Below are positions 43,073 to 64,000 of a stretch of DNA of 64,000 nucleotides, piece after piece; position 1 is the stretch's first letter, and each line of letters starts with the position of its first letter. This stretch comes from Candidatus Omnitrophota bacterium (lineage in GTDB: Bacteria; Omnitrophota; Omnitrophia; Omnitrophales; Aquincolibacteriaceae). The position numbers and the translations under genes were made by a program. The notes beneath the pieces are model-generated. The model did no database searches and was not told where the DNA came from. It worked only from the letters and a program-made list of their open reading frames with translations. The stretch lies in assembly GCA_043732705.1 (NCBI GenBank), contig JAYTHE010000032.1:66005-130004 (forward strand), read 5' to 3'.

Positions 43073-43191
43073 ACTCTGATGTTGGGGTTTTCTCAAAGAA
43101 TGAGCTTCAGACGCTTGCCGATGGGGGCTAAAAATGAACAATGAAGATTGGGATTTAGAATAATTCAATTGAATATTATTCGAATTTTTAA

Positions 43192-43788
43192 ATGAAAAAG
43201 GAAAAAATGAAAAATAAAGGTTCTGATTTGGAGCAAAAATCAAAAAGCCGGTTTGTGATGGATGTAAAGGAAATCCGCCGCCGCGCCCGCAAACATGTCG
43301 AAGAAGGTGCTGTCACGGAAGGTTACGAAGGTGACCGCAAGACTATCTTAAAGCTGCTCAATGATGCGCTTGCGACCGAAATTATTTGTGTATTACGCTA
43401 CAAGCGCCATTATTTCATGGCGCAAGGCATTCATGCGAAACCGATTGCTGAAGAATTCCAGGAGCATGCCACTGAAGAACAGGCGCATGCCGACAGTATC
43501 GCGGAAAGAATTATGCAGCTGGGCGGTGAACCTGACCTGAATCCTGAAGGCTTGACTACCCGCAGCCACTCACAGTATGTGGAAGGCGAGTCTTTGCTTG
43601 ATATGGTTAAAGAAGATTTGGTTGCGGAAAGAATCGCGATTGATTCTTACAAAGAAATCATCGCCTATGTCGGCGGCAAAGACCCGACGACCCGCCGTCT
43701 TATGGAGGAAATTCTTTCGAAGGAAGAAGAACATGCGGATGATATGGCGGATATTTTGGCGGCCCTAGATCCGGCCAAAAAAATGTGA
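43192..43788 (+). CDS. bacterioferritin/ferritin-like di-iron protein
   Basis: Ferritin-like four-helix bundle with paired E..H ligand motifs (EIICVLRY...EEQAHADSIAERI). Confidence 0.65.
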   Translation: MKKEKMKNKGSDLEQKSKSRFVMDVKEIRRRARKHVEEGAVTEGYEGDRKTILKLLNDALATEIICVLRYKRHYFMAQGIHAKPIAEEFQEHATEEQAHADSIAERIMQLGGEPDLNPEGLTTRSHSQYVEGESLLDMVKEDLVAERIAIDSYKEIIAYVGGKDPTTRRLMEEILSKEEEHADDMADILAALDPAKKM

Positions 43789-43812
43789 CGGTAAAACGGT
43801 AAAGATTAATTT

Positions 43813-43998
43813 ATGGAATTGATTTTTGAGTGGATAGCGTGGTTTGCCTTGTTCTTGGGATGTATTTTTATTTTATGGAAACTGTACTTATTCACGACGT
43901 GGAACATTGAGAGAACTGTTTTTCTTGGCGGAATCGGCGCTTATCTGGGTTCGAAGTCAAAAAACGCGCGGAAGAAGCAAGCCGTGGCCGCGAAATGA
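43813..43998 (+). CDS. hypothetical small membrane protein (61 aa)
   Basis: Two hydrophobic helices; stop overlaps the GT4 start (ATGA). Confidence 0.3.
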   Translation: MELIFEWIAWFALFLGCIFILWKLYLFTTWNIERTVFLGGIGAYLGSKSKNARKKQAVAAK

Positions 43999-45266: not shown

Positions 45267-45276
45267 GGAGGGCATA

Positions 45277-45402
45277 ATGAAAAGGTTTATGTTGGTTTTA
45301 ATCATGATTCTTTTTGTGGGAGCATTCAATGGTTGTCATAGCGGAACGATGCGTGGAGTCGGTTCGGACATTTCGAGGGTCGGAGACCACTTGCAGAAAT
45401 AA
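45277..45402 (+). CDS. entericidin-like small lipoprotein, paralog 2 (41 aa)
   Basis: MKRFMLVLIMILFVGAFNGCHSGTMRGVGSDISRVGDHLQK; RBS gaggaggg. Confidence 0.7.
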   Translation: MKRFMLVLIMILFVGAFNGCHSGTMRGVGSDISRVGDHLQK

Positions 45403-45484
45403 ATGAACAGATTTATTGCCTGCAAGCTAAACGCAAGAGTACCTTTTATTTCTTTTTAGGAAACAGTACAATATGTTTTAACTT

Positions 45485-45895
45485 ATGGATCAAAAGAAAA
45501 GTGCTCCCGATGCGGGAGTGGTTAAACCCAGAGTTCTTGTCGTGGATGACGAGCAGTCCATGCGGCGTCTTTTGTGCCATACTCTCTCTCTCTCCGGCTT
45601 TAATATTTCAACTGCAGCTAATGCGGCAGAATTTCGTGAGCAAGTTTTTATTCAAAAACCAGAGGTTATTATTCTCGATATTTTGCTGGGTGACCATAAC
45701 GGTCCCGAAGTTTATTTGGAACTGCTGGATGAGGGCTTGGATTCAAATATTCCCGTCATTTTTCTTTCGGCACTGATTGAAAAAAGGTGGATGCCCAAAT
45801 CGATTGAGAGTAACCCGCGCCATGCATTTATCAGCAAGCCGTTTGAGTACCAAGAACTAATACTCAAATTGCGAGAGTTTGCGGCGCTTAAATAA
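45485..45895 (+). CDS. single-domain response regulator (receiver only), paralog family member
   Basis: VLVVDDEQ...IILDILLGDHNGPEVY...IPVIFLSAL. Confidence 0.75.
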   Translation: MDQKKSAPDAGVVKPRVLVVDDEQSMRRLLCHTLSLSGFNISTAANAAEFREQVFIQKPEVIILDILLGDHNGPEVYLELLDEGLDSNIPVIFLSALIEKRWMPKSIESNPRHAFISKPFEYQELILKLREFAALK

Positions 45896-48779: not shown

Positions 48780-48790
48780 TCAATAAAGTT

Positions 48791-50149
48791 ATGAATAAAA
48801 CTGTTCTTGTTGTGGATGATGACAGTCGAATCGCGAATCTCATTTCGACTCGCTTAAAGAAGCAAGGATATTTGCCCGTGATTGTTGAAGATGGCAACAG
48901 CGCGATTGAATGGGTCGAGCGTAATGAAGCGGCATTGATTATGTTGGATGTCCGGCTTCCAGATATTAACGGTGTTGATGTGTTAAGACAAATCATCAAA
49001 AAGAAACCGGGTCTATTTGTAATTATGATTAGTGCGCATGCGGACGTTCAAAACGCGGTGGAATGTATCAAAATCGGAGCCACGGACTTTCTTGAAAAGC
49101 CGTTTGAATTTCCTACCTTTGACGCAAAAGTGAAGCAGATTTTTCAGCAGCTGGGATTAAAGGCCGAGGTTGCCGCTTTAAAACAGGAATTAGGAATTAC
49201 TTATAAAGATAAAAGTTTAATCGGAAAAAGCCCCGCGATGATTAAGGTTTTTCAATCGATTGGCATCGCGGCAAAAAGTGAAGCCAGTGTCTTGATTCAC
49301 GGAGAAAGCGGAACAGGAAAAGAGCTTGTTTCAAGAGCAATTCATTTTAACGGGACACAAAAACAGGGCCCTTTTATGGCGGTGAATTGCGGAGCCATTC
49401 CGGAAAACCTTCTTGAAAGTGAATTATTTGGACATGAGAAGGGATCTTTTACGGGCGCGGTAGGCCGTAAGCTGGGAAAATTCGAGGAAGCGCAAAACGG
49501 AACTATATTTTTAGATGAAATCGGGGAAATGCCACTGTCATTGCAGGTTAAATTGCTGCGGGTGCTGCAAGAGCGAGAAATCGTCCGCGTGGGCGGAACG
49601 GTCTCCATTCCCATTCATGCCCGCTTTATTACGGCGACAAACCGCGATTTAAAGAAAATGGTGCAAGAAGGGTTGTTCCGCGAAGATCTTTATTACCGGA
49701 TCAATGTATTTCCGATTCGTTTGCCGCCCTTACGCGAAAGAAAAGAGGATATTACAGATCTTTTCCGCCACTTCGTAAACCGGCATAGCGAAGGCAAAGC
49801 GTCGGTTAAGACAGATGAAGGCGCGTTAAGAAGACTGGAAGAGTATGACTGGCCCGGAAATATCCGCGAGCTAGAAAATTTTGTCGAACGTCTTTTGCTT
49901 TTATTGGGAGAAAAAAATCACATTACCGAAAAAGATATCGATGCTATGGATGGATTAAGCGATGCTCCTGCTTCAGAAAAAGCCGAAGCGCCTAAAGAAA
50001 GAGCTCAGGTGTTGGGCGAGACGGAGCGGGCAATTCTTGAAAAGGCATTGCAAGACGCCAATGGTAATATTGCTAAGGCTTCTAAGCTTGTTCAGATGAG
50101 CCGTGATTCTTTTTATCGGAAGATGAAAAAATATTCAATTGCCCGGTAA
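48791..50149 (+). CDS. sigma-54-dependent response regulator (NtrC family: REC - AAA+ - Fis-type HTH)
   Basis: GESGTGKE Walker A, GSFTGA (GAFTGA-type) motif, C-terminal HTH. Confidence 0.9.
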   Translation: MNKTVLVVDDDSRIANLISTRLKKQGYLPVIVEDGNSAIEWVERNEAALIMLDVRLPDINGVDVLRQIIKKKPGLFVIMISAHADVQNAVECIKIGATDFLEKPFEFPTFDAKVKQIFQQLGLKAEVAALKQELGITYKDKSLIGKSPAMIKVFQSIGIAAKSEASVLIHGESGTGKELVSRAIHFNGTQKQGPFMAVNCGAIPENLLESELFGHEKGSFTGAVGRKLGKFEEAQNGTIFLDEIGEMPLSLQVKLLRVLQEREIVRVGGTVSIPIHARFITATNRDLKKMVQEGLFREDLYYRINVFPIRLPPLRERKEDITDLFRHFVNRHSEGKASVKTDEGALRRLEEYDWPGNIRELENFVERLLLLLGEKNHITEKDIDAMDGLSDAPASEKAEAPKERAQVLGETERAILEKALQDANGNIAKASKLVQMSRDSFYRKMKKYSIAR

Positions 50150-50467
50150 GTCTTATAACAAGAACGGCTGTTATCTCCATTTGTGCTTAAAACGCGCTAT
50201 GCGATGCGTTAAAGTCCGCTATTGCTAAGCTGGATGGGGCCGCGCTGAATTTTCCAGCCTGCATGGCTTCCCAAGGCTTTTCCTTCCTAGTCCGACAATT
50301 GCAAAAAACCGTCAGAGCCCTCTGACACTATTTTCTTAATTGAGATTTTTTCAAAAGACGTTTTTTTCTTAAGTTGTTTATCTGTATGAAGATATGACTT
50401 TGGCATGCGCCGTGGATATACAGAGTCAACGGAATGAAATACGTGAGGGAAAAAGGAGGGCTTGTTT

Positions 50468-51049
50468 ATGGAAAAGAGTCATTACGAACAAATCAAAAAT
50501 AATAATAATTTCAATTCATCGACGAGGGGATCCAAACGCAGACCACCGATGCAAAGTGAGTTTGATGAGCCTAAATTATCCTATTGCGATGTCCCTCAGC
50601 CGGCTGTAAGTGCTTGCGGGATAGCTCAATCGACAAATGCGCAAGCCTGTGATCAAACAGCTTATTCACGCTCGCAAGGAACTTCTGATCAGACTTTTAA
50701 AAATAAAAAAGATCAGAAAGACGCTGTGTCCCGTGAAGACTGGGAAGGCGGCGGGTCGCGTCCCGCGGCAGCATTCTCAGACGAAATGTTTCCCCATAAT
50801 AACCCTGCAAATGACTTACAGACACAAGCTGACAGTGTTCCAAAAGCTAAATATGGCGACTTTGGGCCGCCTAAAAATCTTCAATCGCTTCCGACCCAAA
50901 ATACGCATGAGCTGGCTGCGGAAGAGGAGCTTGATGATGAAGTGCGTGTAAAAGCAGCGAAGAACTCCGGAGAAGAAGTCCATTGGAACGAAAGAGCGGA
51001 CCGCCTTAAAAAGCGGGGAGAAGATTATAGAGGGCGTCGCAGTGCTTAG
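50468..51049 (+). CDS. intrinsically disordered hydrophilic protein, SREDWEGG / GPPKNLQSLPTQNTH family, paralog 2
   Basis: Shares SREDWEGGGSRP and GPPKNLQSLPTQNTH blocks with 38358..38699; RBS aaaggaggg. Confidence 0.55.
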   Translation: MEKSHYEQIKNNNNFNSSTRGSKRRPPMQSEFDEPKLSYCDVPQPAVSACGIAQSTNAQACDQTAYSRSQGTSDQTFKNKKDQKDAVSREDWEGGGSRPAAAFSDEMFPHNNPANDLQTQADSVPKAKYGDFGPPKNLQSLPTQNTHELAAEEELDDEVRVKAAKNSGEEVHWNERADRLKKRGEDYRGRRSA

Positions 51050-51155
51050 CATTACGTCCTCGGCGGAGAGTCAAGCTCCGCGTCAACCGAAGGAGATGGC
51101 GGGCTTCAAAAGCAGTAGTCCCGCCGCTCTTCTCGGAATAGTTAAGGAGGCTGTT

Positions 51156-51545
51156 ATGAATGAACGGATTTTAGTCATCGAAAACAGAGGGCCTAGCTAT
51201 CAAATTTTGAAGGATAAGTTGGAAGAAAAAGGCTGCGTTGTTTTAACGGCTCAAAACGAACACGAGTTTTGGGGGCATGCTTGCGAGACGAATGTTGAAT
51301 TAGTTCTTTTTGATATTTGCCTCAAGAACCGGCTCAGTTCCGAGGTTTACGCGGCAATTTTAAACTTTCAACAAAGCCGAAAAATCCCGGTCATTTTTAA
51401 GACCGGGATGACTGACCAGGACGAACACGGAGCCATGCTGTATGACGAGAACTATATTTTTTTTCCGGAACCGGTTGGTTTTGAGCGTCTCTATGTAGAA
51501 ATACAAAAACTACTTAATCAAAGACAGCTGGCCCATGCTGCCTAA
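51156..51545 (+). CDS. receiver-like single-domain protein with partly degenerate acidic pocket (EN in place of DD)
   Basis: MNERILVIENRGPS...LVLFDICL...IPVIFKTG; RBS aaggagg; paralogous to the other stand-alone receivers. Confidence 0.55.
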   Translation: MNERILVIENRGPSYQILKDKLEEKGCVVLTAQNEHEFWGHACETNVELVLFDICLKNRLSSEVYAAILNFQQSRKIPVIFKTGMTDQDEHGAMLYDENYIFFPEPVGFERLYVEIQKLLNQRQLAHAA

Positions 51546-51557
51546 GAGAAGGAAACA

Positions 51558-52043
51558 ATGAAAAAAATTTTAGTGGTGGATGATGAATGGGCCATTCTTG
51601 AACTTTTACGGATCAAACTTACAAAAAAGGGGTTTGATGTGATTACCGCGAGCAATGAAAAAGAGTTTTTTGAACAGGTTTTTGAAAATAAACCGGATTT
51701 GATTATTTTGGATATTTGGCTCGGGAACGAAGGCGGCGGAACGAAGCTTTATGACGTGGCGCTTGACGGAGGGCTTGATCCGGATGTTCCGGTTATTTTT
51801 ATGAGCGCACTTGTAGAAGAAGGTACGCCGCCCAAAAGAGCGTCCAAGGGAGGGCGTTTTGCTCTGTACGGCAAACCATTCGATTTTAATTTTTTGTTGG
51901 AAGACATTTATTGTTTAACGGGGGTTGAGTCGGGGTTGAATTCGGCGGAAGTTGACAGAGATAGGATTGGGAAGGCTGCAAATTTAGGGAAATATAAAAG
52001 TGGGTCGAATGGCGGGCCAGCCCCGCAGCTAAAAACCGGATAA
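51558..52043 (+). CDS. single-domain response regulator (receiver only) with Gly-rich C-terminal tail
   Basis: ILVVDDEW...IILDIWLGNEGGGTKLY...VPVIFMSAL. Confidence 0.75.
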   Translation: MKKILVVDDEWAILELLRIKLTKKGFDVITASNEKEFFEQVFENKPDLIILDIWLGNEGGGTKLYDVALDGGLDPDVPVIFMSALVEEGTPPKRASKGGRFALYGKPFDFNFLLEDIYCLTGVESGLNSAEVDRDRIGKAANLGKYKSGSNGGPAPQLKTG

Positions 52044-52693: not shown

Positions 52694-52867
52694 TTGAATT
52701 GGGCAATTAGTTTTTTGATTATCGCATTGGTTGCTGCGATTTTAGGATTTGGAGGTATTGCCGCAACTGCTGTGGATATGGCGAAGGTCGTATTCGTAGT
52801 TTTTCTGGTGCTGGCATTGCTTTCAGGTTTGATCGGCATTTTCCAGGGTAAGGGGCCGCGGGTTTAA
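52694..52867 (+). CDS. DUF1328-family small membrane protein (57 aa)
   Basis: [45 protein letters not shown]; TTG start 10 nt after aaggagg. Confidence 0.6.
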
Positions 52868-52898
52868 ATAAAAAAGAAGAAACAAACAAGGAGGAGTT

Positions 52899-53240
52899 AT
52901 GCAGACACACACTAAGGTAAATGAGAAAAAAGACAAAATTCATGATGCTCTTGAGCTGCTTAATGATGCGGCAAAAGAGAAAAAGGATGAAGTTTTTGAA
53001 GTGATCAACACTAAGTATGAACATGTCCGGGATATGTTCGCAGGCGCTGCCGAAAACGGACAGGCCATTGCAAAGGAAGCCAAGAAGCAGCTTTCAAAAA
53101 CGCTTCAAACGGAAAAGATAAAAATTAAACAAGTCGCGGGCGATCTGAATAAGAAAGTTCACAGAAGCCCATGGGCCTATTTAGGCGGCGCGGCATTAAG
53201 TTCTTTTGTCGTTGGAATTTTACTGGCGCGCAAAAAATGA
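52899..53240 (+). CDS. DUF883 (ElaB/YqjD/YgaM) membrane-anchored stress protein, paralog 1
   Basis: C-terminal PWAYLGGAALSSFVVGILLARKK matches the ElaB tail anchor. Confidence 0.75.
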   Translation: MQTHTKVNEKKDKIHDALELLNDAAKEKKDEVFEVINTKYEHVRDMFAGAAENGQAIAKEAKKQLSKTLQTEKIKIKQVAGDLNKKVHRSPWAYLGGAALSSFVVGILLARKK

Positions 53241-53383
53241 TTCCGACTTATATTGTGGCGCTGCTGGCGGACCTGGCTTTTTTGTTATGGCTCGCCAGCG
53301 GCTTAGCATTCAATTGGTTTGAAGATTTCCTGGGCTCGTCGGAAACGAAAGGAGCTTTTTATGAAAGCGAATCTGGATCTTAA
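53237..53383 (+). CDS. hypothetical small membrane protein (48 aa), translationally coupled to DUF883
   Basis: ATGA overlap with 52899..53240; one hydrophobic helix. Confidence 0.3.
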   Translation: MIPTYIVALLADLAFLLWLASGLAFNWFEDFLGSSETKGAFYESESGS

Positions 53384-53459
53384 CTGCGTCTCTATTTTTT
53401 TGGCAAGGCGAGGGGGATGTTGGTTTTTGATTTTCTGAAAAGCAAAATAAAGGGGATTT

Positions 53460-53585
53460 ATGAATAAACTTATAAAAAAATCACAAAGTGAAAAGGGCGG
53501 ATTAAGAGGCGGGATTTTACTATGGCTGATTGGCGTGCCGTTGCCGCTCATTCTTTTGTTTTCACTTTTACGCGGTTGCCACTAA
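53460..53585 (+). CDS. small KGG-motif (stress-induced) membrane protein, 41 aa
   Basis: MNKLIKKSQSEKGGLRGGILLWLIGVPLPLILLFSLLRGCH; RBS aaagggg. Confidence 0.4.
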   Translation: MNKLIKKSQSEKGGLRGGILLWLIGVPLPLILLFSLLRGCH

Positions 53586-53603
53586 GCGGAGAAGCGGTGA
53601 TCT

Positions 53604-53777
53604 ATGTATGGAGTCATCGGAACCTTGGTTTTAATTCTGGATGTCGCTGTGATCGTCGATTGCCTGCAGTCGCCTATGAGCGCAGCAGAAAAATGCCTTT
53701 GGATCTTTTTGGTTCTGTTTTTGCCTGTCTTAGGCATGCTGCTTTACTTCTTATTGGCGAAACGACCTATTTTATAA
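53604..53777 (+). CDS. PLDc_N-family small membrane protein (57 aa)
   Basis: MYGVIGTLVLILDVAVIVDCLQSPMSAAEKCLWIFLVLFLPVLGMLLYFLLAKRP. Confidence 0.55.
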   Translation: MYGVIGTLVLILDVAVIVDCLQSPMSAAEKCLWIFLVLFLPVLGMLLYFLLAKRPIL

Positions 53778-53839
53778 CGAAAAGAACAGGAAGAATAAAA
53801 AGATGGGCACAGCCAGGATCGAGTCACTTCTTCGGTGCT

Positions 53840-53856
53840 GGGGTAAATGCCCCATA
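53840..53856 (+). promoter_or_regulatory. GGGG-N4-CCCC-ATA regulon motif copy
   Basis: GGGGTAAATGCCCCATA, then 21 nt, then TAAGCT; upstream of the DUF883 paralog at 53953. Confidence 0.5.
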
Positions 53857-53952
53857 TGAACGAAGTCAGTGGAAGGTTAAGCTTGCGTTTACGAAATAAG
53901 GGCTTTTTTGAGGTGAATCACGGAAATTTTAAATAAAAAAGGAAAACATAAT

Positions 53953-54294
53953 ATGACAACTCATTCGAAAGAAAATGAAAAGAAAGACAAAATTCACGAG
54001 GCATTGGAATTGTTGAATGAAGCCGCCAAAGAAAAAAAAGACGAGGTGTATGGCGTGATTAATTCCAAATATGAGCATCTTCGTGAAATGTTTGCCGGCG
54101 CGGTTGAGACAGGGCAGGACTTTGCGGACGACGCGAAGAAAAATATTTCCAAAACACTTTCAGCGGAAGAGAAGAAATTGAAACAAATCGCCGCTCAATG
54201 GGATAAGGAAGTTCGTAAAAATCCTTGGACTTATATCGGCGGAGCGGCGCTTGGCTCGCTTTGTTTGGGGCTTTTACTGGGCCGGAAGAAATAG
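53953..54294 (+). CDS. DUF883 (ElaB/YqjD) membrane-anchored stress protein, paralog 2
   Basis: ~60% identical to 52899..53240; PWTYIGGAALGSLCLGLLLGRKK tail. Confidence 0.75.
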   Translation: MTTHSKENEKKDKIHEALELLNEAAKEKKDEVYGVINSKYEHLREMFAGAVETGQDFADDAKKNISKTLSAEEKKLKQIAAQWDKEVRKNPWTYIGGAALGSLCLGLLLGRKK

Positions 54295-54318
54295 TAAGCA
54301 GTCAACTTGCTAAAAAGG

Positions 54319-54729
54319 ATGTTTATGAAGTTGAAAAATGCTTGGTTTATCGCAGAGCTTTTAGGCGCATTCGGAGTTGTGCAAAAGTACAAGAAAAATA
54401 CGGCAGAGTGGGTGCGGATTCAAACCGCGATGGTTTGGCTTAAGAGTATTGCTTTTGCACGTGATCTTGTGATTTATCAGGTGGGGATTTCAGCTTGCGT
54501 TTTAGTTCTGGTTATTAGTGCGGTTTTGATGGAAGTGGCGTTCATTTTTTGTTTGCCAATGAGCCTGCAATCAAAGATAACCGCTGTCTTCGTAGTGAGC
54601 GGAATTGATTTTGCGGCGGCGTTAAGCTTTCTGGGTTACTTTTTATCTTCTGAGCGTTGGCTTAAGCAGGCGGCCAGTTACAACGCTTGCGTTTCGGAAA
54701 TGATACAGAAAACGAATTCAAAAAAATAA
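54319..54729 (+). CDS. hypothetical inner-membrane protein, YqjE (DUF1469)-like position and size
   Basis: ~135 aa with 2-3 TM segments immediately after a DUF883 gene, as in the E. coli yqjD-yqjE arrangement. Confidence 0.4.
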   Translation: MFMKLKNAWFIAELLGAFGVVQKYKKNTAEWVRIQTAMVWLKSIAFARDLVIYQVGISACVLVLVISAVLMEVAFIFCLPMSLQSKITAVFVVSGIDFAAALSFLGYFLSSERWLKQAASYNACVSEMIQKTNSKK

Positions 54730-54744
54730 AAGAGAGGTATTGAT

Positions 54745-54903
54745 ATGGCAACGTCAACAATTTTACTCATCGTGCTTATAGTATTACTGATTGGCGGATT
54801 GCCGACATGGCCGCATAGCAAGAGTTGGGGATATTATCCTGCCGGCGGAATAGGGACTGTACTTCTGATTGTTTTGATTTTGGCATTGATGGGCCGAATC
54901 TAA
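54745..54903 (+). CDS. DUF3309-family small membrane protein (52 aa)
   Basis: MATSTILLIVLIVLLIGGLPTWPHSKSWGYYPAGGIGTVLLIVLILALMGRI. Confidence 0.6.
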   Translation: MATSTILLIVLIVLLIGGLPTWPHSKSWGYYPAGGIGTVLLIVLILALMGRI

Positions 54904-54941
54904 CATTTTTCAAAACGAAGTACAAAACAGCAGGAGGCTTT

Positions 54942-55469
54942 ATGTTGACTAAGATCGAAGAGAAGAAAACTGAGGTTGCGGTTGGCATTGCAGTCGACAA
55001 GCAGGTTGATATTGCGCTTCCCAAAAATGATCGTAAGGAGCTGGCGCATGCTCTCTCGCTTATATTGGCCGATACGTACGCGCTTTATTTGAAAACTCAA
55101 AACTTTCATTGGAATGTGAAGGGTGCACGTTTTCCATCGTTGCACATTCTTTTTGAAAGCCAATATCTCGAATTAGCGGCTGCGGTGGATTTAATCGCAG
55201 AACGGATCCGGGCGCTTGGATGTCTTGCCCCGGCAAGCTTCAGCGAGTTTGCGAAATTGACCTGTCTAGAAGAGGGCAATTCTCAAATTCCTGCAGCAGA
55301 AATGGTCGCGGTCCTCATGCATGATCACGAACGAGTAGCGCAAAGTATGCGTGCTATAGTGCCTAGGGCAGAGAAGACACATGATCACGCTTCCGTTGAC
55401 CTTCTTTCACAAAGAATATCAACGCATGAAAAGACAGCATGGATGCTTCGCAGCACAAACGAAACCTAA
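54942..55469 (+). CDS. dps: DNA starvation/stationary phase protection protein Dps
   Basis: LKTQNFHWNVKG...HILFESQY ferroxidase-centre region; RBS caggagg before the ATG at 54942. Confidence 0.85.
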   Translation: MLTKIEEKKTEVAVGIAVDKQVDIALPKNDRKELAHALSLILADTYALYLKTQNFHWNVKGARFPSLHILFESQYLELAAAVDLIAERIRALGCLAPASFSEFAKLTCLEEGNSQIPAAEMVAVLMHDHERVAQSMRAIVPRAEKTHDHASVDLLSQRISTHEKTAWMLRSTNET

Positions 55470-55562
55470 GTCAAACCAGATAAGCGTTCGTCTTTAACGG
55501 GCTTTTTTGCGCCGAGTGTAAAGACACAGAGACGAGTTGCTTTTTTTGGGATAGGATGAAGT

Positions 55563-57878
55563 ATGTGGAAAAAATGGCTTCCATGGCGTTTCTTCATTAG
55601 GGCACTTGCGCGCAAAAAGGGTTTTCTTGACCCCATTGCTTTTTTTTCCAAACTCCAAAGTTTTGGTCAGCCTTCCGAAGTGACCATGCCGATTGAAATT
55701 GTGCGTCTTGCGACAATATTAATTGCGCGCGGCTCGCTGAATGTTGTCGCGATTCAACATAACCTGGATTGGAATTGGCCTTATTGGGTCGTGCGCCAAT
55801 TTGATCCAAAAGATGTATCGTTTATTCCGCGCGCATTTTCACTGACTCATATTAATTTAACGCATCGTAATTGGACCGCTGTCGGTATTCCTGATCTGAG
55901 TTTGTATCCGATTGTTGACCCGCGAGGATTGCTGACCCCTTTTTTAGACGGCTGGTCTCTGGATGCTTGGGTGGTCCAAGGCGAAGGTGATCAAAACCTG
56001 ATTCCTGCGTATTTAAAAACAACTACTCAGAAATGGCATCTGGAAAAAACCCCCTCAATTACGACTCACTCAAACCATCATCATCTGAAACTTAATTCGC
56101 ATATCAGTGTTGAAAAAAGCAAAGAGGGGCCTTATTGCATGATGACTGTTGAAGCGAGTTCGGCCTCAGCCGCTTGGCTTGTGATTTCATTGCGTCCCCT
56201 TAACCCCGAGGGGGTGAGTGAAATCAGAAATATTACGCTCCTTGATCAAGGGTTAACGTGGCAGGTTAATAAAAAGGAGCGGATTTATTTTAATGAAGTT
56301 CCTGACAAGCATTATTTCTCTGAATTTCGAGAAGGCGACGTTTACCGTAAAGTTATGGCCGCAAATAAACACCCCGAAAAACTTTCGGCACAAAATGCCG
56401 AATCTGTTGAATGCTCTTCGGGAATGGCGACCGCGGCAGCCATGTTTCGTATTCCGGAACACGGACAAAGAAAAATCGAAATTCAAATTCCTTTGACGAT
56501 CTCTCTGATCAGGAAGCCCGTTCCGCAGAGTTTTATTGTGGCTTCAAGTGGCGAAGCGGAACAAATTTGGTCGGAAGCTCTACGGGGCCATACTAAACTT
56601 CAGGTTGCGGATAAACAGACGCAGGCCGTTTATGATGCTGCGGTTTATGCCATGATTCTACATACGCCCGGTATCGATGCTTTTCCCGGGCCGTATACCT
56701 ATAAACATTTTTGGTTCCGTGACGCGGCTTTTATTGTGAATGCTCTTTTGGGCGCAAACTTGATTGCAAGAGCCGAGAAAATTCTAGATCACTTTCCGGC
56801 TCGCCAAAGACTTACGGGTTACTTTTGTTCACAAGACGGCGAATGGGACTCCAACGGACAAGTGCTTTGGATTTACCGCCGGTTTTGTGAGTTAACAGGT
56901 ACTTTGCCCAAGGCTGCATGGAAAGATTCAATAAAAAGAGGCGCAGAATGGATGAAACGTAAAAGATTGCCCGAAGATCTTGAACAGCCGCATGCCGGAC
57001 TTTTTCCTCCCGGCTTTAGCGCCGAACATTTGGGTCCCAACGACTATTATTATTGGGATGATTTTTGGGGAGTAGAAGGATTTTTTTCCGCCGCTTACCT
57101 CATGCAGGGCTATCAAGATTCCCAAAGCGCGCAACAATATGAAAATGAGGCCGGCCATTTTGAAACTTGTCTCCTTCGCAGCCTAGATCAAAGTGAAGCA
57201 CGACTTAAGACAAAAGCCATGCCTGCATCACCTTATCGCCGTCTGGATACCGGAGCGATTGGTTCTTTGGCGATTGGTTATCCGCTCACTTTTTGGGAAC
57301 CTGATGATTTGCGTGTTATGCAGACAGTTGAATATCTTTTGAAAAATCATTTTATCGAACATGGATTTTTCCATGACATGAGTCACTCGGGTATTAATCC
57401 GTATCTGACATTAACAGTCGCGCAAACTCTATTGAGAAATTACGACCCGCGTTACGCGGATATCATGAGGCGTATTCAAAAGCTGGCATCGCCGACAGGA
57501 CAATGGCCCGAAGCCGTTCATCCTCAGACTTTGGGCGGCTGTATGGGAGATGGCCAGCATATCTGGGCCGCAGCGGAATGGATTCTCATGATTAAAAATT
57601 GTTTTGTACGCGAAGAAAAAGAAAGACTTATTCTTTGTTCGGGAGTTTTGCCGGAATGGTATGAGGGCGGCAAAAAAGCTTCCTTCGGAGTGACTCCCAT
57701 TTCACAAGGTTTAATTTCGGTGGAGCTTTTTTCAGAAGGTACCGGAGTGCGAGTGAGCTGGAAAGCCGAATGGCGCGGAGCGGTTCCGACGATTGAGGTC
57801 CGGCTTCCCGGTTACACAATGATCAACGTCAATTCCGGCGAGACCACGGTATTGCTGGCAAAGGAAAAGCATTCATGA
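55563..57878 (+). CDS. glycoside hydrolase, (alpha/alpha)6 six-hairpin superfamily (GH15/GH63/GDE-like)
   Basis: 771 aa; HFWFRDAAF-type motif and Trp/acidic-rich C-terminal half; exact family not assignable. Confidence 0.5.
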   Translation: MWKKWLPWRFFIRALARKKGFLDPIAFFSKLQSFGQPSEVTMPIEIVRLATILIARGSLNVVAIQHNLDWNWPYWVVRQFDPKDVSFIPRAFSLTHINLTHRNWTAVGIPDLSLYPIVDPRGLLTPFLDGWSLDAWVVQGEGDQNLIPAYLKTTTQKWHLEKTPSITTHSNHHHLKLNSHISVEKSKEGPYCMMTVEASSASAAWLVISLRPLNPEGVSEIRNITLLDQGLTWQVNKKERIYFNEVPDKHYFSEFREGDVYRKVMAANKHPEKLSAQNAESVECSSGMATAAAMFRIPEHGQRKIEIQIPLTISLIRKPVPQSFIVASSGEAEQIWSEALRGHTKLQVADKQTQAVYDAAVYAMILHTPGIDAFPGPYTYKHFWFRDAAFIVNALLGANLIARAEKILDHFPARQRLTGYFCSQDGEWDSNGQVLWIYRRFCELTGTLPKAAWKDSIKRGAEWMKRKRLPEDLEQPHAGLFPPGFSAEHLGPNDYYYWDDFWGVEGFFSAAYLMQGYQDSQSAQQYENEAGHFETCLLRSLDQSEARLKTKAMPASPYRRLDTGAIGSLAIGYPLTFWEPDDLRVMQTVEYLLKNHFIEHGFFHDMSHSGINPYLTLTVAQTLLRNYDPRYADIMRRIQKLASPTGQWPEAVHPQTLGGCMGDGQHIWAAAEWILMIKNCFVREEKERLILCSGVLPEWYEGGKKASFGVTPISQGLISVELFSEGTGVRVSWKAEWRGAVPTIEVRLPGYTMINVNSGETTVLLAKEKHS

Positions 57879-59443
57879 AAATTTTAATGATGACCAATAC
57901 CTACGCACCCATTGTCGGAGGGCTTGAAAAATCCATTCAGGTTTTCAGTGAGCAATTCAGATTAAAAGGGCATGAAGTTAAGATTGTCGCGCCCGAGTTC
58001 GAAAAAATGCCGGCACATGAAAAAGATGTGATTCGTGTGCCTTCGCTTGAAAAATTTGTCGGGACAGATTTTTCTGTGGGTTTACCGCTGCCTGAATTAC
58101 TTCAAAATTTGATCGAGAAATTTAAGCCCGATATCGTGCATTCCCACCATCCCTTTCTCATGGGGGATTTGGCTTTGCGTGTTTGTGGACAGCATAAAAT
58201 TCCACTGGTGTTCACTTATCACACCATGTTTGAGCATTACACGAACTACTTTGGACTCGAAAACCAGGCCATGCAGAAATTTGTCGTCGAAATTGCTACC
58301 GGATACGCCAAAATGGTGGATCAAGTCATTGTTCCAAGCGATAGTGTGGCGCGCCTTTTGGTAGAGAGAAAAATTCAGACGCCGATTGCTGTTGTTCCCA
58401 CCGGTCTTGATGTGGCACATTTTTCTCCCGCAGCCACGACACTCAGGAGACAGTTTAAAATTCCTCAAAAAGCTTTCGTTGTCGGACATTTAGGGCGACT
58501 CTCTCCTGAGAAAAATCTGATGTTTTTGACCGAAGCGGTTGCTGAGTTTCTTACCCAGCACAAAGAAGCTCATTTTTTGATTGTAGGCAGCGGACCCAGT
58601 GAAAGAGAAATGAAAAAAATGATGCGTGTGAAAGGAGTTTTAAACCGTGCGCATTTTGCGGGGGTGCAGAAAGGAAAAAAATTAGTCGAGGCTTATCATG
58701 CAATGGATGTTTTTGCTTTCGCCTCTAAGAGTGAAACGCAGGGTATGGTGGTGACTGAGGCAATGGCCGCAGGATTACCGGTTGTGGCTTTAGATGCTCC
58801 CGGAGTGCGTGAGGTTGTCCATGATAAAAAAAATGGCCGTCTGCTTGAGGAAGAATCCCGCAAGAAGTTTGCGGCCGCGCTGGCATGGTGCTTGATCCGA
58901 ACCGCACCTCAATGGAATTTGATAAAAAAGCAGGCTCTTGCAACCGCGAATGAATTCTCGTTGGAGACTTGCGCGACCAAGGCTTTAAAAGTTTATGAAA
59001 CTGTTTGTGCGAATCATGTTATTCCGTCAGACGATAAGTGGGGAGCTTGGCATGCGCTCGCGGGGAGATTTAAGACGGAGCTAGGGCTTTTACTTAATTT
59101 AGGTAAAGCCGCAGGATCTGCAGTGATTCAGGCGACGGTTACGGAAAGCCCGCTCAAAGAAAAAATTGTAAATGCTTATCAGAAAAAAATTACGGAATCA
59201 GTTGAATCTTGGACTGTGGCACTTAAAAAAAATCGCAAACAAGCGGAAGATGTGTTAAGGGGAGAGCAACCAAGATCTGAAAATGAAGATGAGGCCATTG
59301 CCAAAAAAATTCATATTTACGAATCGGAATTGATCGAGCTTAATCGCAAAGTTGCAAAAGCCTGCGAAGATTTTGAAAAATACTTTGATGACGCTCACGC
59401 AAATTTAAAAAAAGAGTTTGAAGGTGGAGCTCCGAGACAATGA
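57875..59443 (+). CDS. GT4-family glycosyltransferase, paralog 2, with ~140-aa C-terminal coiled-coil extension
   Basis: MKILMMTNTYAPIVGGLEKSIQ...; FASKSETQGMVVTEAMAAGLPVVA. Confidence 0.8.
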   Translation: MKILMMTNTYAPIVGGLEKSIQVFSEQFRLKGHEVKIVAPEFEKMPAHEKDVIRVPSLEKFVGTDFSVGLPLPELLQNLIEKFKPDIVHSHHPFLMGDLALRVCGQHKIPLVFTYHTMFEHYTNYFGLENQAMQKFVVEIATGYAKMVDQVIVPSDSVARLLVERKIQTPIAVVPTGLDVAHFSPAATTLRRQFKIPQKAFVVGHLGRLSPEKNLMFLTEAVAEFLTQHKEAHFLIVGSGPSEREMKKMMRVKGVLNRAHFAGVQKGKKLVEAYHAMDVFAFASKSETQGMVVTEAMAAGLPVVALDAPGVREVVHDKKNGRLLEEESRKKFAAALAWCLIRTAPQWNLIKKQALATANEFSLETCATKALKVYETVCANHVIPSDDKWGAWHALAGRFKTELGLLLNLGKAAGSAVIQATVTESPLKEKIVNAYQKKITESVESWTVALKKNRKQAEDVLRGEQPRSENEDEAIAKKIHIYESELIELNRKVAKACEDFEKYFDDAHANLKKEFEGGAPRQ

Positions 59444-61830
59444 TTTTAAGAAGATTTGTACGAAAATATTGCGTGTGGCTGAACCCTGATGAGCTGCGAA
59501 TGCGCCTGCTCGGATTGTCGCGTCCCGACAAGCCGCAAGAAGGGCGTGGGTTGGTTTTGATTCAAATCGACGGATTTTCCTATCGCAACTGTGAACGCGC
59601 AATGAAAAAAGGGCATATGCCTTTTTTGAAAAAACTGATCAATCGCGAGCATTATCAGTTTAGAGATATGTATTCGGGAATTCCTTCCAATACGCCCGCT
59701 TTTCAAGGGGAGTTTTTTTTTGGTAAAGCGCAATGTGTGCCCGCTTTTCAATACTGGAATCGTAAAAGCGGAAAAATTAACACGATGTATGAAAAGGAAA
59801 GCGCGGAAGCGATGGAGCGTTCGCTGATGCAGAACGAGCCGGGATTGATTGCGGGAGGAACGGCCTACGGAAATATTTTTTCAGGAGGCGCGGCCGAATC
59901 CCATGTGTGTGCTTCGACGGCGGATTGGCTCGGAGTGGTTAAAACTTGGAATCCTTACTCGGTCTTCGTCACTTTTTTGTTAAGCCCGTTTACGCTCATA
60001 CGCGGCCTATTTCTTTGTATCGTCGAAGCGGGTTTGGCATTTTTTGATTTTTTGAGGGCTCTCGCTAAAAAAGATATTCTGAATGAATTCGCATTTATCT
60101 TAATGCGCGTTTTTGTTTCCATTATGATGCGTGAAATTATTACAGCGCATGCGTGCATGGATATTTACCGCGGAACTAAAGTGGTTCATGTCAATTATTT
60201 TGGTTATGACGAACAGGCGCATCGCCGGGGTCCGTCCACGCGCTTTGCTTTTTGGAGTTTAAGCGGCATCGACAGCGCGATTAAAAAAATATGGAACGCC
60301 GCGGCGCATTCAGATTTACGTCATTATGATGTGTGGATTTACTCCGACCACGGACAGGAAACCGTGCAGCCCTTTCCAAGTATTTCAGATAAGAGCATTC
60401 AGACGCTGGTTCAGGAAGTCTATAGTGAGATGGGCATGTCTGAATCCGAAGTCTTTTCCTCGGTATTTGTGAAAAGACACGAACTTTCCGGCGATACGGT
60501 CATGAGTCAGCGGTTTTTGGGAGCACAAGATCAAGGTGAGGATGTCACGTGGCCGGTTGTGACAACTTTGGGACCCATTTGTCATATTTATTTTCAAAAA
60601 AAGCATATGGATGGGGAGAAACGGATTTTTGCTGAAAATCTTTTGAAGAAAAATATAAATCTGCCTGTGGTCGTGATTCCGCTAGAAAACGGAAAAGCAG
60701 AATACCGAACTCAGACTGAAACTTTAACTTTACCAGAAGATGCCTCGAAACTCTTGGGAGATGATCATCCCTACCGGGATGCCGTCACGAAAGACTTGGA
60801 AACTTTTTTGCAGCTTGAAAATTCCGGGGATCTTATTTTATTCGGTTGGTGTCATGGTAAACAGGCCATTTCTTTTTCAAGCGAACGCGGAGCCCATGCC
60901 GGCCTCGGACCGCATGAAACACAGGCGTTCGTGCTTTTGCCGCCGGATGCTGCGATTGAAAAAGATCCCAAGGTTTTGATCCGCGGAAATGATTTAAGAC
61001 AGGCCGCATTGAAAGTTCTCGGACGTGTAAAACACGATCGAAGGTCTCTGGTTGAGGCTGTTGCCACGGAACGCAGGAAATTGCGTGTTATGTCTTATAA
61101 CGTGCATAGCTGCATCGGTATGGACGGAAATTTATCGGTGGAACGGATTGCCCGTGTAATCGCCAAGTATGACCCGGATATTGTGGCTTTGCAGGAATTG
61201 GACGCGGGCCGCAGAATCAAAGGCTGTGACCAAGCGGCTGCCATTGCGCGCGAATTAGAAATGAATTTTCATTTTCATTCAGTGCATGGCGCGGAAAAGC
61301 AATGCTTTGGCAACGCGATTCTGAGTTGTCATCCCATGAAAATGATTCAGGCGGAACAACTGCCTTCCTTAAGAAAATCAGCTTTACTTGAGACGCGGGG
61401 AGTTTTGCAAATGGAGGTGGATTTTTATGGGCATAAAATACAGGTTTTTAACACACATTTGAGTATTTGGACTCCGGAGTTAAAATTGCAAATCCAAAAA
61501 TTAATACACGCTGAAATTTTGGGAAAACCCGGGCCCGAAGAGCATGTTATTTTATGCGGAGATTTCAACATGACGCCGCAATCTCAACTTTATCGCTTGC
61601 TCGCACAGTCTTTTCAAACCCCTCATTTTAAGAAGCAGAAAGGAATTTCTGAAAATACATGGATCAGTCACTGGCCAATCCGGAAACTCGATCATATTTT
61701 AATGCGCGGCGGTTTGACCGCTAAGTTTGTCAATGTGCCGCGGACAAGGCTTGAGCGCGATGCGTCTGATCATCTTCCGGTGGTTGCGGATTTCGTATTT
61801 AATCCGGTTTATCAAGGGAGTACGTTATGA
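59440..61830 (+). CDS. fusion protein: alkaline-phosphatase-superfamily (type I phosphodiesterase-like) domain + TM helices + C-terminal EEP phosphoesterase domain
   Basis: N-terminus LVLIQIDGFSYRN...GIPSNTPAF; C-terminus VMSYNVHSCIG...ALQELD...DHLPVVADF. Confidence 0.5.
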   Translation: MILRRFVRKYCVWLNPDELRMRLLGLSRPDKPQEGRGLVLIQIDGFSYRNCERAMKKGHMPFLKKLINREHYQFRDMYSGIPSNTPAFQGEFFFGKAQCVPAFQYWNRKSGKINTMYEKESAEAMERSLMQNEPGLIAGGTAYGNIFSGGAAESHVCASTADWLGVVKTWNPYSVFVTFLLSPFTLIRGLFLCIVEAGLAFFDFLRALAKKDILNEFAFILMRVFVSIMMREIITAHACMDIYRGTKVVHVNYFGYDEQAHRRGPSTRFAFWSLSGIDSAIKKIWNAAAHSDLRHYDVWIYSDHGQETVQPFPSISDKSIQTLVQEVYSEMGMSESEVFSSVFVKRHELSGDTVMSQRFLGAQDQGEDVTWPVVTTLGPICHIYFQKKHMDGEKRIFAENLLKKNINLPVVVIPLENGKAEYRTQTETLTLPEDASKLLGDDHPYRDAVTKDLETFLQLENSGDLILFGWCHGKQAISFSSERGAHAGLGPHETQAFVLLPPDAAIEKDPKVLIRGNDLRQAALKVLGRVKHDRRSLVEAVATERRKLRVMSYNVHSCIGMDGNLSVERIARVIAKYDPDIVALQELDAGRRIKGCDQAAAIARELEMNFHFHSVHGAEKQCFGNAILSCHPMKMIQAEQLPSLRKSALLETRGVLQMEVDFYGHKIQVFNTHLSIWTPELKLQIQKLIHAEILGKPGPEEHVILCGDFNMTPQSQLYRLLAQSFQTPHFKKQKGISENTWISHWPIRKLDHILMRGGLTAKFVNVPRTRLERDASDHLPVVADFVFNPVYQGSTL

Positions 61831-63488
61831 CAAAAGGGAAAGTCGGTATTGTTTTGGGGATTATGATTTTTTTAGGCGCAGCTGTTTTTATTCTCGGCCG
61901 CGGTGAAAAACTCCAGCAGCCTATCCAATGGGCTGCGGGCCAACTTCGCTACACGAAGTATCAAGAAACAAACTTTTTAAGTTTTAAAGTGTTACAAAGC
62001 CTCTATGAAAACCCGAATCCCAACGGGATGCTTGCGCTTAAATTAAAAAAATTTTGGAAAACACCTATTATCAGTAATGAAGCTTATTATCGGGGCGCCC
62101 AGCCCCATCATCCTGTTGACCCAAAGCTTGGTCCCGCGTTAAAGGTGATGACCTGGAATATTGAAAAATCCTATCACATTCGAGATGTGATTAAGTTGTT
62201 AACCTCCGATGATGAATTCCACAAAATGGTTAACTTGGAAAAGGCGCCGCCGGAATCAGAAGCTTTTAAAAATTTAGCGAGGCAGCGTGAACGGATGCAG
62301 CAGGCGGACATTATTCTGCTGCAAGAGATGGATATCGGCGTGAGCCGCTCGGGTTATATTGACGCGGCAAGGGAATTGGCGCAAGCCTTAAATATGAATT
62401 ATGCTTATGGACCTGAGCAGTTAGAAATTGACCCCGTGATTATGGGAACAGAAAAAATATTGCATTCAGACGGCTCGATTGATCAAGAAGCCACCCAGCA
62501 TTACAAAGCCGACCCCGAAAAATATAAAGGTGTTTTTGGTTCGGCCGTATTGTCGCGGTATCCCATTAAAAAAGTTGAGCTTTTTCAGCTGAATCATCAG
62601 GCTTATGACTGGTACGCGAAAGAGAAAGGCAAAACTACTTTTTTGGAAAAAGCGCGCCGGTTAGGCGCTGAAGTTACTTTTAAGAATGAAGTGACGCGCG
62701 AAATTAAAATGGGCGGGCGAATTTTCTTTCGTGTCGATTTGGATGTTCCCGACGTCCAAGGTGGAACGCTCAGCGTGATTGATATTCATTTGGAAATAAA
62801 ATGTCAGCCGCTGGGCCGGAAAATTCAGATGGAAGAAATCTTGGAATATATCCGGAAAATTAAAAATCCCATGATTGTTGCCGGTGATTTTAATTCAGCT
62901 CCCGATGATTTAAGCCCGACCTCTATTTCTCGTACGGCGGAACGCGCGGTTAAAAATCCGACCAATTGGTTTTCCGCGGGAGTGGCAGTCCTTCTTCCTC
63001 AAGCGCTTTTAATCAATACTTCCCGGGCATTGGGTAATGTTACAAAGAACTTTCAGGATCCCACGGCGAAAGATATTCCCGTACTTGCACCGAATAAAAT
63101 AAAAGGTTTGTTTGATTTGATGCAGAATTTTAGGTCATCACAGGGCTATGCTTTTGATTTTCGCGGCGAAAAAGAAAGGTCCATGGGCGGGCATACAGGC
63201 ACTCTCGCAAATGCCAATCAACGCGATCTCTTAGGCTTTAAAACAAGTTTCAGCGTGAAGCGTCCGTTGGGACCGATTGGTAAATACCGGCTGGATTGGA
63301 TTTTTGTTAAATCTTATTTGAAAGATCCTTTGGATGTTTCGGGTCCGCATCGCATGGCGCCGCATTTTGGCGAGACGCTGGAAGAATTAAATACCGGTGT
63401 TCAACCGCAGCTGTCCGACCATCATCCCAGTGTGGTTGATCTTCCTTTGCAGGAGCCCAAATTAATCAAAGACGGGACAGGTAAATAA
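61827..63488 (+). CDS. membrane-anchored EEP (endonuclease/exonuclease/phosphatase) family protein
   Basis: VMTWNIEKS...ILLQEMD...GDFNSAPDD...SDHHPSVVDL catalytic motifs; N-terminal signal anchor. Confidence 0.55.
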   Translation: MTKGKVGIVLGIMIFLGAAVFILGRGEKLQQPIQWAAGQLRYTKYQETNFLSFKVLQSLYENPNPNGMLALKLKKFWKTPIISNEAYYRGAQPHHPVDPKLGPALKVMTWNIEKSYHIRDVIKLLTSDDEFHKMVNLEKAPPESEAFKNLARQRERMQQADIILLQEMDIGVSRSGYIDAARELAQALNMNYAYGPEQLEIDPVIMGTEKILHSDGSIDQEATQHYKADPEKYKGVFGSAVLSRYPIKKVELFQLNHQAYDWYAKEKGKTTFLEKARRLGAEVTFKNEVTREIKMGGRIFFRVDLDVPDVQGGTLSVIDIHLEIKCQPLGRKIQMEEILEYIRKIKNPMIVAGDFNSAPDDLSPTSISRTAERAVKNPTNWFSAGVAVLLPQALLINTSRALGNVTKNFQDPTAKDIPVLAPNKIKGLFDLMQNFRSSQGYAFDFRGEKERSMGGHTGTLANANQRDLLGFKTSFSVKRPLGPIGKYRLDWIFVKSYLKDPLDVSGPHRMAPHFGETLEELNTGVQPQLSDHHPSVVDLPLQEPKLIKDGTGK

Positions 63489-63489
63489 A

Positions 63490-64000
63490 ATGTTGAATGG
63501 CGAGGAACAGCTTAAAAAAAATCCGGTTGTGCTTTTACATGCATTTCCGCTTTCCTCCGAAATGTGGCAGCCTCATGTAGATTCGCTCTCAAAAGACTTT
63601 CGTTTAATTACACCTGATTTGACGGGCTTAGGAAAATCACCCGTAAAAACAAAAGTTTCAATTGAGGGGATGGCGGAAGATATTTTTAAATCATTGGAAG
63701 ACATGAATCTCAAGCAGCCTGTTTTTTTGGCCGGCCTTTCGATGGGAGGATACGTTGCTTTTGAATTTTTCAGAAAATATCCTGAGCGAGTTAAAGGATT
63801 GGGATTATTTTCAACGCGTGCGAGCGCAGATACGCCGGCAACTCGTGAAAAGCGCTTTCAAGGTATTGAGAAGATTGAAAAAGAAGGTTTAGAGTCGTTT
63901 TTGGGAGGGAATTTACCCAGTCTGATAGGTAAAACGACCGCTGAAAAACATCCCGAAATACTGACGCAGCTTAAGATTATAGCCGGTGGCAACACGCCAG
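63490..64000 (+). CDS. alpha/beta-hydrolase fold protein (N-terminal part; continues beyond the window)
   Basis: VVLLHAFPLSS...GLSMGGYVAF nucleophile elbow; starts 1 nt after the preceding stop. Confidence 0.6.
   Translation, partial: MLNGEEQLKKNPVVLLHAFPLSSEMWQPHVDSLSKDFRLITPDLTGLGKSPVKTKVSIEGMAEDIFKSLEDMNLKQPVFLAGLSMGGYVAFEFFRKYPERVKGLGLFSTRASADTPATREKRFQGIEKIEKEGLESFLGGNLPSLIGKTTAEKHPEILTQLKIIAGGNTP

Follow-up and report, generated by a model that had tools for sequence, protein, structure and literature searches.

A 64,000-nucleotide stretch of a Candidatus Omnitrophota genome (assembly GCA_043732705.1, contig JAYTHE010000032.1, forward-strand positions 66,005 to 130,004), hereafter the window, ends in five tightly packed genes, g1 to g5, the first three of which constitute a conserved core. 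These three encode a protein with a predicted glycoside hydrolase family 15 (GH15)-like fold (g1), a family 4 glycosyltransferase (GT4; g2) and a fusion of an NPP-type phosphodiesterase with an EEP phosphoesterase (g3). The order g1–GT4–g3 was kept across at least eight phylum-level labels, and this retention of gene order in other phyla is the feature of the locus that exceeds chance. We tentatively read the core as a module linked to stress, with a role in remodelling the head groups of membrane lipids or in producing a glycolipid, a possibility that we hold to fall somewhat short of probable. The genes, and a terminator-like element preceding them, are as follows:

55486-55510, + strand: terminator-like hairpin and T-run after the Dps gene (consensus pattern match only).
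55563-57878, + strand: g1, open reading frame (ORF) of 771 residues, GH15-like protein as judged from its model.
57875-59443, + strand: g2, ORF of 522 residues, GT4 retaining glycosyltransferase.
59440-61830, + strand: g3, ORF of 796 residues, NPP-type phosphodiesterase + EEP fusion.
61827-63488, + strand: g4, ORF of 553 residues, second EEP phosphoesterase, accessory.
63490-64000, + strand: g5, at least 170 residues, alpha/beta-fold hydrolase, accessory, cut by the window end.

Gene neighbourhoods were sampled in 80 genome loci found through g1 and, independently, in 80 metagenome loci found through g3. With g1 as the anchor, a GT4 gene lay within 3 kb downstream in 50 of the 60 informative genome loci, directly adjoining in 36 of these, and g3 followed in 23 of 47. 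With g3 as the anchor, g1 and a GT4 gene were both present in 31 of the 44 informative metagenome loci, 27 of which had them in the order of the window. Members of the core were also found fused, both to each other and to further domains: GT4 + g3 proteins of 1,237 residues (P0184, P0228 and L038), GtrA + g1 proteins (13 of the top 120 g1 matches), and a GT4 joined to an alpha/beta-hydrolase domain in an Omnitrophota locus (L002). Homologs of g1 numbered more than 4,568, at about 50% identity, and grouped into 1,865 clusters at 50% identity. They carried the labels Omnitrophota, Planctomycetota, Nitrospinota, Nitrospirota, Desulfobacterota, and Alpha- and Gammaproteobacteria, with Marinobacter, Methylobacter, Rheinheimera and Azoarcus among the genus labels. 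That thousands of homologs stay about 50% identical across phyla points to strong selection on the three-gene core.

The original prediction, which was made on the DNA alone, had proposed a translationally coupled operon of five genes. Their packing on the + strand was borne out, with the ATGA junctions at 57875, 59440 and 61827 read directly and the ATG of g5 at 63490 placed one base past the TAA of g4. As one tightly packed unit the five-gene operon stands, but the conserved unit is the smaller g1–GT4–g3, because the closest relative (L084) has these three genes only, and g4 and g5 recur in three other loci each. Four-base overlaps are common across the window (also at 7213, 33435, 37554 and 42542), so that the overlaps alone indicate an operon and nothing more. 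Since the terminator-like hairpin and T-run follow the upstream Dps gene, g1 plausibly opens the transcription unit, and the hairpin would be its probable 5′ boundary; in the scan for promoters and terminators, the number of sites in the region was not above shuffle expectation. The only match of an Rfam scan for riboswitches or other RNA elements was a tRNA at 19918-19992.

That the five genes are mere neighbours with unrelated functions is highly improbable. The absence of g4 and g5 from L084 and the frequency of 4-base overlaps in this genome would fit such an explanation, but for the three-gene core it is already contradicted by an order shared by at least eight phylum-level labels, reciprocal from two independent anchors and backed by the fusions. 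The original prediction had placed the genes in no known pathway, and would have been refuted by an assignment to a well-known one, such as glycogen metabolism, combined with a lack of adjacency elsewhere; adjacency was instead found in many phyla, and nothing pointed to glycogen metabolism or another known pathway. A glycogen, trehalose or sucrose pathway was considered and rejected, as g1 matches no glycoside hydrolase model in Pfam or NCBIfam and the GT4 lies below every equivalog cut-off.

Variants of the core were seen as well. In a 66%-identical relative (L085, 12307-12660), all that is left of the GT4 between g1 and g3 is a 117-residue N-terminal remnant, and in L056 and L059 g3 directly follows g1; from these arrangements, g1 and g3 can persist without an adjoining GT4. 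A contig binned as 'Halobacteria archaeon' (L072) carries a bacterial-type g1–GT4–g3 triad at 49% identity, which reflects either mis-binning or transfer between domains.

The g1 sequence had no match in Pfam (E ≤ 0.01), NCBIfam or the PDB, and its assignment derives from an AlphaFold (AF2) model with a predicted local distance difference test score (pLDDT) of 82 and a predicted template modelling (TM) score of 0.84. The model comprises a beta-sandwich (residues ~130-310), an (alpha/alpha)6 barrel (~330-681) and a C-terminal beta-sandwich (682-765), preceded by a cationic and aromatic region (residues 1-100) that is highly conserved and modelled with low confidence. The best Foldseek match was the bacterial GH15 glucoamylase 1lf6 (E 6e-16, TM-scores 0.55/0.63), followed by GH94 and GH65 phosphorylases, a debranching enzyme, GH63 and GH116, at identities of 9-12%. 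The GH65 and GH94 matches (E 1e-15 to 1e-11, TM-score about 0.5) have no Pfam counterpart, and the GH94-like domain of cyclic glucan synthase ranked 30th. A search of the g1 family profile against the PDB reached GH15 at E 0.05 only, with FWFRD aligned with VWSRD of 1lf6 (W-x-R-D motif), and PYRRLD of g1 aligned with PPRRLD of a genuine GH15 protein. A profile–profile comparison (hhalign) with a purpose-built GH15 alignment yielded a probability of 21%, which does not suffice to map the active site in full. Distant g1 relatives gave faint matches to GH15 and mannosylglycerate-hydrolase models, and remained below the GH15 threshold of PF00723 (13-17 bits vs a cut-off of 22).

Acidic and aromatic residues are invariant in the g1 barrel, as are R559, R560, H608 and H666, which are compatible with hydrolase or phosphorylase activity alike. 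E488 (at least 90% conserved) and E650 (invariant) are candidate acid/base residues, which in the model would sit on loops after barrel helices 5 and 11 as in GH15. Judged at the level of the predicted fold, g1 is a very distant GH15-like protein, which may act as a hydrolase, a phosphorylase or a transglycosylase, so that "glycoside hydrolase" is to be taken as a fold-level term. The "six-hairpin glycoside hydrolase" originally proposed holds in this sense alone, because the model matches GH15 (1lf6 best) but the sequence matches no family. Likeness to GH15 (glucoamylase/glucodextranase/trehalase), GH65 and GH94 consists of an N-terminal beta-sandwich with an (alpha/alpha)6 barrel and may, for GH15, extend to the substrate-binding motif W-x-R-D. 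Differences are the identity of about 10-12%, the missing glycoside hydrolase Pfam match, the extra conserved N-terminal region of 100 residues, and the association or fusion with membrane proteins.

Assignment of g2 to GT4, as predicted, was secure (PF00534, 121 bits with a cut-off of 26.4; PF13439, 115 bits with a cut-off of 28.5). The protein consists of a GT4 core (residues 1-385) and a lineage-specific C-terminal tail of 137 residues (59030-59443), for which L001 and L004, both close relatives, gave the only matches in BLAST comparison. Its best NCBIfam match was the alpha-monoglucosyl-diacylglycerol synthase NF049988 (150 bits vs a cut-off of 400), with the MshA model and the GlcNAc-phosphatidylglycerol synthase GpgS NF053787 close behind, the latter ranking third (123 bits vs 480). 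All scores lie below the equivalog cut-offs, so that these ranks do not establish orthology to lipid glycosyltransferases. The best relatives of solved structure in the PDB were MshA and then PimA. An anti-phage defence role was also considered and rejected, since the Pfam match to a GT4-conflict family was marginal and lay under stronger GT4 matches, and PADLOC found nothing.

The fusion of an alkaline-phosphatase-like with an EEP domain that had been predicted for g3 was confirmed, with PF01663 at 39.5 bits (cut-off 23) and PF03372 at 72.7 bits. The NPP-type domain, of the alkaline-phosphatase superfamily, spans residues ~37-500 and the EEP domain residues ~547-790. Across 32 g3 homologs, D44, T85, D257, H261, D303, H304 and H486 of the former and N554, E586, H673, D708, N710, D777 and H778 of the latter were invariant, and by these residues both phosphoesterase sites appear intact. 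A profile of the N-terminal domain retrieved the Xanthomonas NPP 2gsn (E 6e-5) with the catalytic motifs in register, consistent with a two-metal NPP catalytic set with a threonine nucleophile. An AF2 model of g3 (pLDDT 82) was submitted to a fold search, in which the top 50 matches listed all fell on the EEP domain and were generic. The best NCBIfam match of that domain was the PRK05421 model; we take YbhP to belong to the PRK05421 family, and ybhP presumably sits in the E. coli clsB lipid operon. Compared with 2gsn and YbhP-type proteins, g3 joins both domains in one chain and carries an insertion in the NPP domain:

59959-60168, + strand: hydrophobic/amphipathic helical hairpin in g3, residues 174-243, conserved, inserted in the NPP domain.

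Hydropathy averaged over the family peaks in the first part of this segment (19-residue windows starting at residues 174-191, mean Kyte–Doolittle value 1.7-2.0), and the model places helices at 172-181, 183-207 and 213-243. Of the transmembrane helices originally proposed for g3, a conserved hydrophobic segment therefore stands, but as an insertion within the NPP domain (residues 174-243). Because it lies between the catalytic residues T85 and D257, it should not be a single membrane pass. Since the hairpin is placed between catalytic residues of one domain and g3 has no signal peptide, it is probably a monotopic membrane anchor on the cytoplasmic face.

The remaining two genes matched their predicted families, g4 as an EEP protein (PF03372, 46.1 bits) with an N-terminal signal-anchor helix (residues 6-24) and the motifs WNI, LQE, GDFN and SDH read in its sequence, and g5 as an alpha/beta hydrolase (Pfam, 66 bits). 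A periplasmic location is predicted for g4. Homologs of g4 (56-66% identity) were found downstream of g3 in L086, L098 and L119 only, and homologs of g5 (50-53%) directly after g3 in L096, L111 and L134. Both are absent from L084, which at 82% identity is the closest relative, and are occasional, lineage-limited accessories.

Partners were counted as genes chained to the module across 163 loci. They are listed below with the number of loci and their position:

DedA/VTT: 26 loci, mostly just upstream of g1.
Acyl carrier protein (ACP) + PlsC acyltransferase, resembling the acyl-ACP–phospholipid acyltransferase Aas: 19 loci, mostly between g1 and GT4.
Membrane protein of 142 residues: 12 loci, upstream.
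CDP-alcohol phosphatidyltransferase: 11 loci, mostly directly after g3.
GtrA: 6 loci, upstream.
DUF3108: 6 loci, variable position.
DUF883-like: 5 loci, upstream.
Alpha/beta hydrolase: 4 loci, downstream.

The functions associated with the module are thus overwhelmingly those of membrane lipids. Of the two candidate products named in the original prediction, a membrane (phospho)glycolipid has clearly the stronger support, whereas a compatible solute became less likely, because of the DedA/VTT, GtrA, ACP–PlsC and CDP-alcohol phosphatidyltransferase partners together with the membrane hairpin of g3. A solute pathway, in which the GT4 would glycosylate a small phosphorylated acceptor (like sucrose-phosphate synthase or MshA), g3 would remove the phosphate, and g1 would hydrolyse the solute after stress, is unlikely in our estimation. 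A glycosyltransferase, a phosphatase and an (alpha/alpha)6 hydrolase make up the standard layout of solute pathways, and Dps, BON, ElaB-like and DUF1328 genes mark the surroundings of the locus as a stress island. The best PDB relative of g2, MshA, acts on inositol phosphate, and distant g1 relatives match GH15 and mannosylglycerate-hydrolase models, if faintly. Set against this are the membrane-lipid character of the recurrent partners (DedA, GtrA, PlsC-type acyltransferase and CDP-alcohol phosphatidyltransferase), the GtrA membrane domains fused to g1, and the architecture of g3, which has a membrane hairpin and two diesterase-type domains instead of a HAD-type sugar-phosphate phosphatase.

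GtrA and DedA, which are fused to or adjoin g1, belong to families that are both linked to polyprenyl-phosphate handling, and this would agree with the building or editing of a glycan or a polyprenyl-phosphate-linked sugar, such as a periplasmic glucan or a surface glycan with phospho-substituents. Here the GT4 would elongate, g1 trim or transglycosylate, the alkaline-phosphatase-type domain move or remove phospho-head groups, and GtrA/DedA handle the polyprenyl-phosphate carrier. We rate this scheme as improbable to the same degree as the solute. Pairs of a glycosyltransferase and a glycoside hydrolase are typical of glycan synthesis operons, and the GH94-like cyclic glucan synthase domain is among the g1 fold matches; the module, however, has a single glycosyltransferase, with no polymerase, exporter or Wzx/Wzy-type genes among its conserved neighbours. 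Moreover, polyprenyl-phosphate-sugar synthases are normally GT2 rather than GT4 enzymes, and the PlsC-type acyltransferase and the CDP-alcohol phosphatidyltransferase indicate glycerolipids.

The CDP-alcohol phosphatidyltransferase admits an inositol-phospholipid variant of the lipid model, in which it would make phosphatidylinositol phosphate, g3 would dephosphorylate this product, the GT4 would glycosylate phosphatidylinositol as do PimA and PIG-A, and g1 would edit the glycan. Its only NCBIfam match was to archaetidylinositol-phosphate synthase (weak, 27 bits), MshA and PimA bind inositol-phosphate acceptors, and inositol phosphatases are among the members of the EEP superfamily. None of these three hints is strong, the CDP-alcohol transferase genes checked had neither an inositol-1-phosphate synthase nor a cytidylyltransferase gene beside them, and many carriers, such as Marinobacter and Methylobacter, are not known to make inositol lipids. 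We thus consider the variant a slim possibility. As a side observation on this partner, in L022, L145 and L149 the CDP-alcohol phosphatidyltransferase follows g3 and is itself followed by ORFs of 165 and 222 residues, which in L022, the sole annotated one of the three, encode a histidine-phosphatase-family protein and a GST. These loci appear to represent another sub-variant of the module.

Under the lipid head-group reading that we tentatively prefer, the module would act on lipid head groups at the cytoplasmic face of the inner membrane, with all substrates and the order of steps inferred. Held there by its hairpin, g3 would cleave head-group phosphodiesters of phospholipids in the manner of a phospholipase C to give diacylglycerol, and then free the head-group phosphate; alternatively, it might dephosphorylate a phosphatidyl-alcohol-phosphate intermediate. 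The GT4 would move a sugar from a nucleoside-diphosphate sugar to diacylglycerol or to a phospholipid head group, giving an alpha-glycolipid. As for g1, its N-terminal region, or a fused GtrA domain in other lineages, would attach it to the membrane, where it might trim, exchange or remove the sugar head group. DedA/VTT or GtrA (scramblase-type), the Aas-like acyltransferase, alpha/beta hydrolases and the CDP-alcohol phosphatidyltransferase would join by lineage. Judging from the genomic setting, the genes would be expressed in stationary phase or under general stress rather than under phosphate starvation specifically. In favour of a lipid acceptor, the family models ranked for g2 include, below their cut-offs, the diacylglycerol glucosyltransferase as the best match, and then the GlcNAc-phosphatidylglycerol synthase.

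Several points weigh against this reading. The lipid product, the substrates and the activities of the module members are all inferred, and g2 falls far below the equivalog cut-offs for lipid glycosyltransferases (150 vs 400 bits), its best solved relative, MshA, using a soluble acceptor. The closest folds to the EEP domain are generic (nocturnin, TDP2), with a sphingomyelinase only at rank 44, and some genomes (Marinobacter) have g1 without a GT4 or g3 nearby. Translational coupling of a glycosidase with a glycosyltransferase would be futile if g1 did not serve in synthesis, editing or recycling, and the role of g1 is the weakest step of the proposed mechanism. Finally, likeness to the phosphate-starvation response is one of logic only, since no Pho-regulon genes appeared among the conserved neighbours.

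A full-text literature search retrieved an analogue, PlcP–Agt, and no description of a g1–GT4–g3 module. PlcP–Agt lipid remodelling pairs a phospholipase C with a GT4 and is described for SAR11, Phaeobacter, Agrobacterium and P. aeruginosa (PMC4796936). The two systems share a phosphodiesterase gene adjoining a GT4 gene, a wide occurrence in aquatic bacteria and, as proposed here, the logic of converting phospholipid to diacylglycerol and on to glycosyl-diacylglycerol. They differ in that g3 is an NPP + EEP fusion and the five genes of the window match only alkaline-phosphatase, EEP, GT4 and alpha/beta-hydrolase Pfam families, and in that PlcP–Agt has no GH15-like partner, while the module studied here lies in a general-stress, not a Pho, setting. 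By its Pfam families, which are the basis of this distinction rather than PlcP or Agt reference sequences, the module appears not to be PlcP–Agt, its phosphoesterases being of the NPP and EEP types.

A second comparison is with the glycolipid operons GpgSDF of P. aeruginosa and HexSDF of C. difficile, which combine a lipid-glycosylating GT4, a modifying enzyme and a putative flippase (PMC12713373). If the lipid role proposed here applies, the likeness lies in a cytoplasmic GT4 acting on a membrane lipid, a second head-group enzyme and a flippase alongside. In those operons, however, these companions are a deacetylase and a YbhN-type flippase, whereas here they are the GH15-like protein, the phosphodiesterase fusion, and DedA or GtrA. 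These and PlcP–Agt are the nearest known systems by logic; the module appears to belong to neither, and its GH15-like partner is unprecedented in both.

No Pfam or NCBIfam model is matched by g1, and no core member has been characterised. If the lipid-remodelling reading is true, the module would provide environmental bacteria with a second means of altering their membrane head groups, not homologous to the known one, and g1 would probably represent a new CAZy family acting on glycolipids, which would give a function to a common "hypothetical protein". A more specific proposal, which we regard as doubtful, is that g1 founds a new family of membrane-tethered glycoside hydrolases or phosphorylases active on lipid-linked sugars. 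It would operate within an unrecognised, stress-induced pathway of many phyla that exchanges the head groups of phospholipids for sugars, or the reverse, and is not homologous to PlcP–Agt. The module occurs in cultured Methylobacter and in genomes assigned to Rheinheimera and Azoarcus, with g1 alone in Marinobacter, and its presence in culturable genera makes it directly testable.

The stress setting of the module comprises a run of genes directly upstream of g1 and, farther upstream, a second unit that includes a paralog of g2:

52694-55469, + strand: stress-gene run upstream of g1, with small membrane-type genes (52694-54903) and then Dps.
43192-45266, + strand: ferritin-like gene and GT4 paralog, the latter 45% identical to g2.

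The run encodes a DUF1328-like protein, two 113-residue ElaB/YqjD (DUF883)-like paralogs, PLDc_N-like, YqjE-like (140 residues) and DUF3309-like proteins, and Dps/ferritin. The same set precedes the module in L001 and L084, and homologs of the 113- and 140-residue proteins lie directly upstream of g3 in the distant metagenome loci L101, L108, L138 and L156. Farther upstream, the window encodes a BON protein and another ferritin, besides many two-component regulators. DUF892 genes occur near the module in other loci, and in unrelated lineages the stress-type neighbours comprised Dps, ElaB-like, YqjE-like, DUF1328, DUF3309, BON and DUF892 genes. The ORF of Dps (54825-55469) has a TTG start and a 39-residue extension unlike Dps; translation probably begins at Met40 instead (about 54942). 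In L123, L125 and L126 (~9500-11750), egtB and egtD, of ergothioneine synthesis, are directly downstream of g1–GT4–g3, which is another link to stress and antioxidant functions.

The GT4 gene at 43995 is, as predicted, a paralog of g2 (45% identity over 385 residues). The ferritin/GT4 pair at 43192-45266 mirrors the arrangement of Dps followed by g1–GT4 some 11 kb downstream, and may have arisen by partial duplication of the stress/glycosyltransferase unit. Between the two units lies a signalling block (40242-52043) with a CHASE3/PAS histidine kinase, a hybrid kinase, a sigma-54 activator and five single-domain response regulators, which is syntenic in L084. Over the whole window (1-64000), the GC skew stays steadily positive, and almost all long ORFs lie on the + strand. 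In L084, the triad is followed within a few kb downstream by a gene of the MamF/MmsF family (magnetosome-type) and a GH1 gene (20268-20609 and 21971-22316), and a GH1 gene is also found just upstream of GtrA–g1 in several loci of the Omnitrophota type, L005 and L065 among them.

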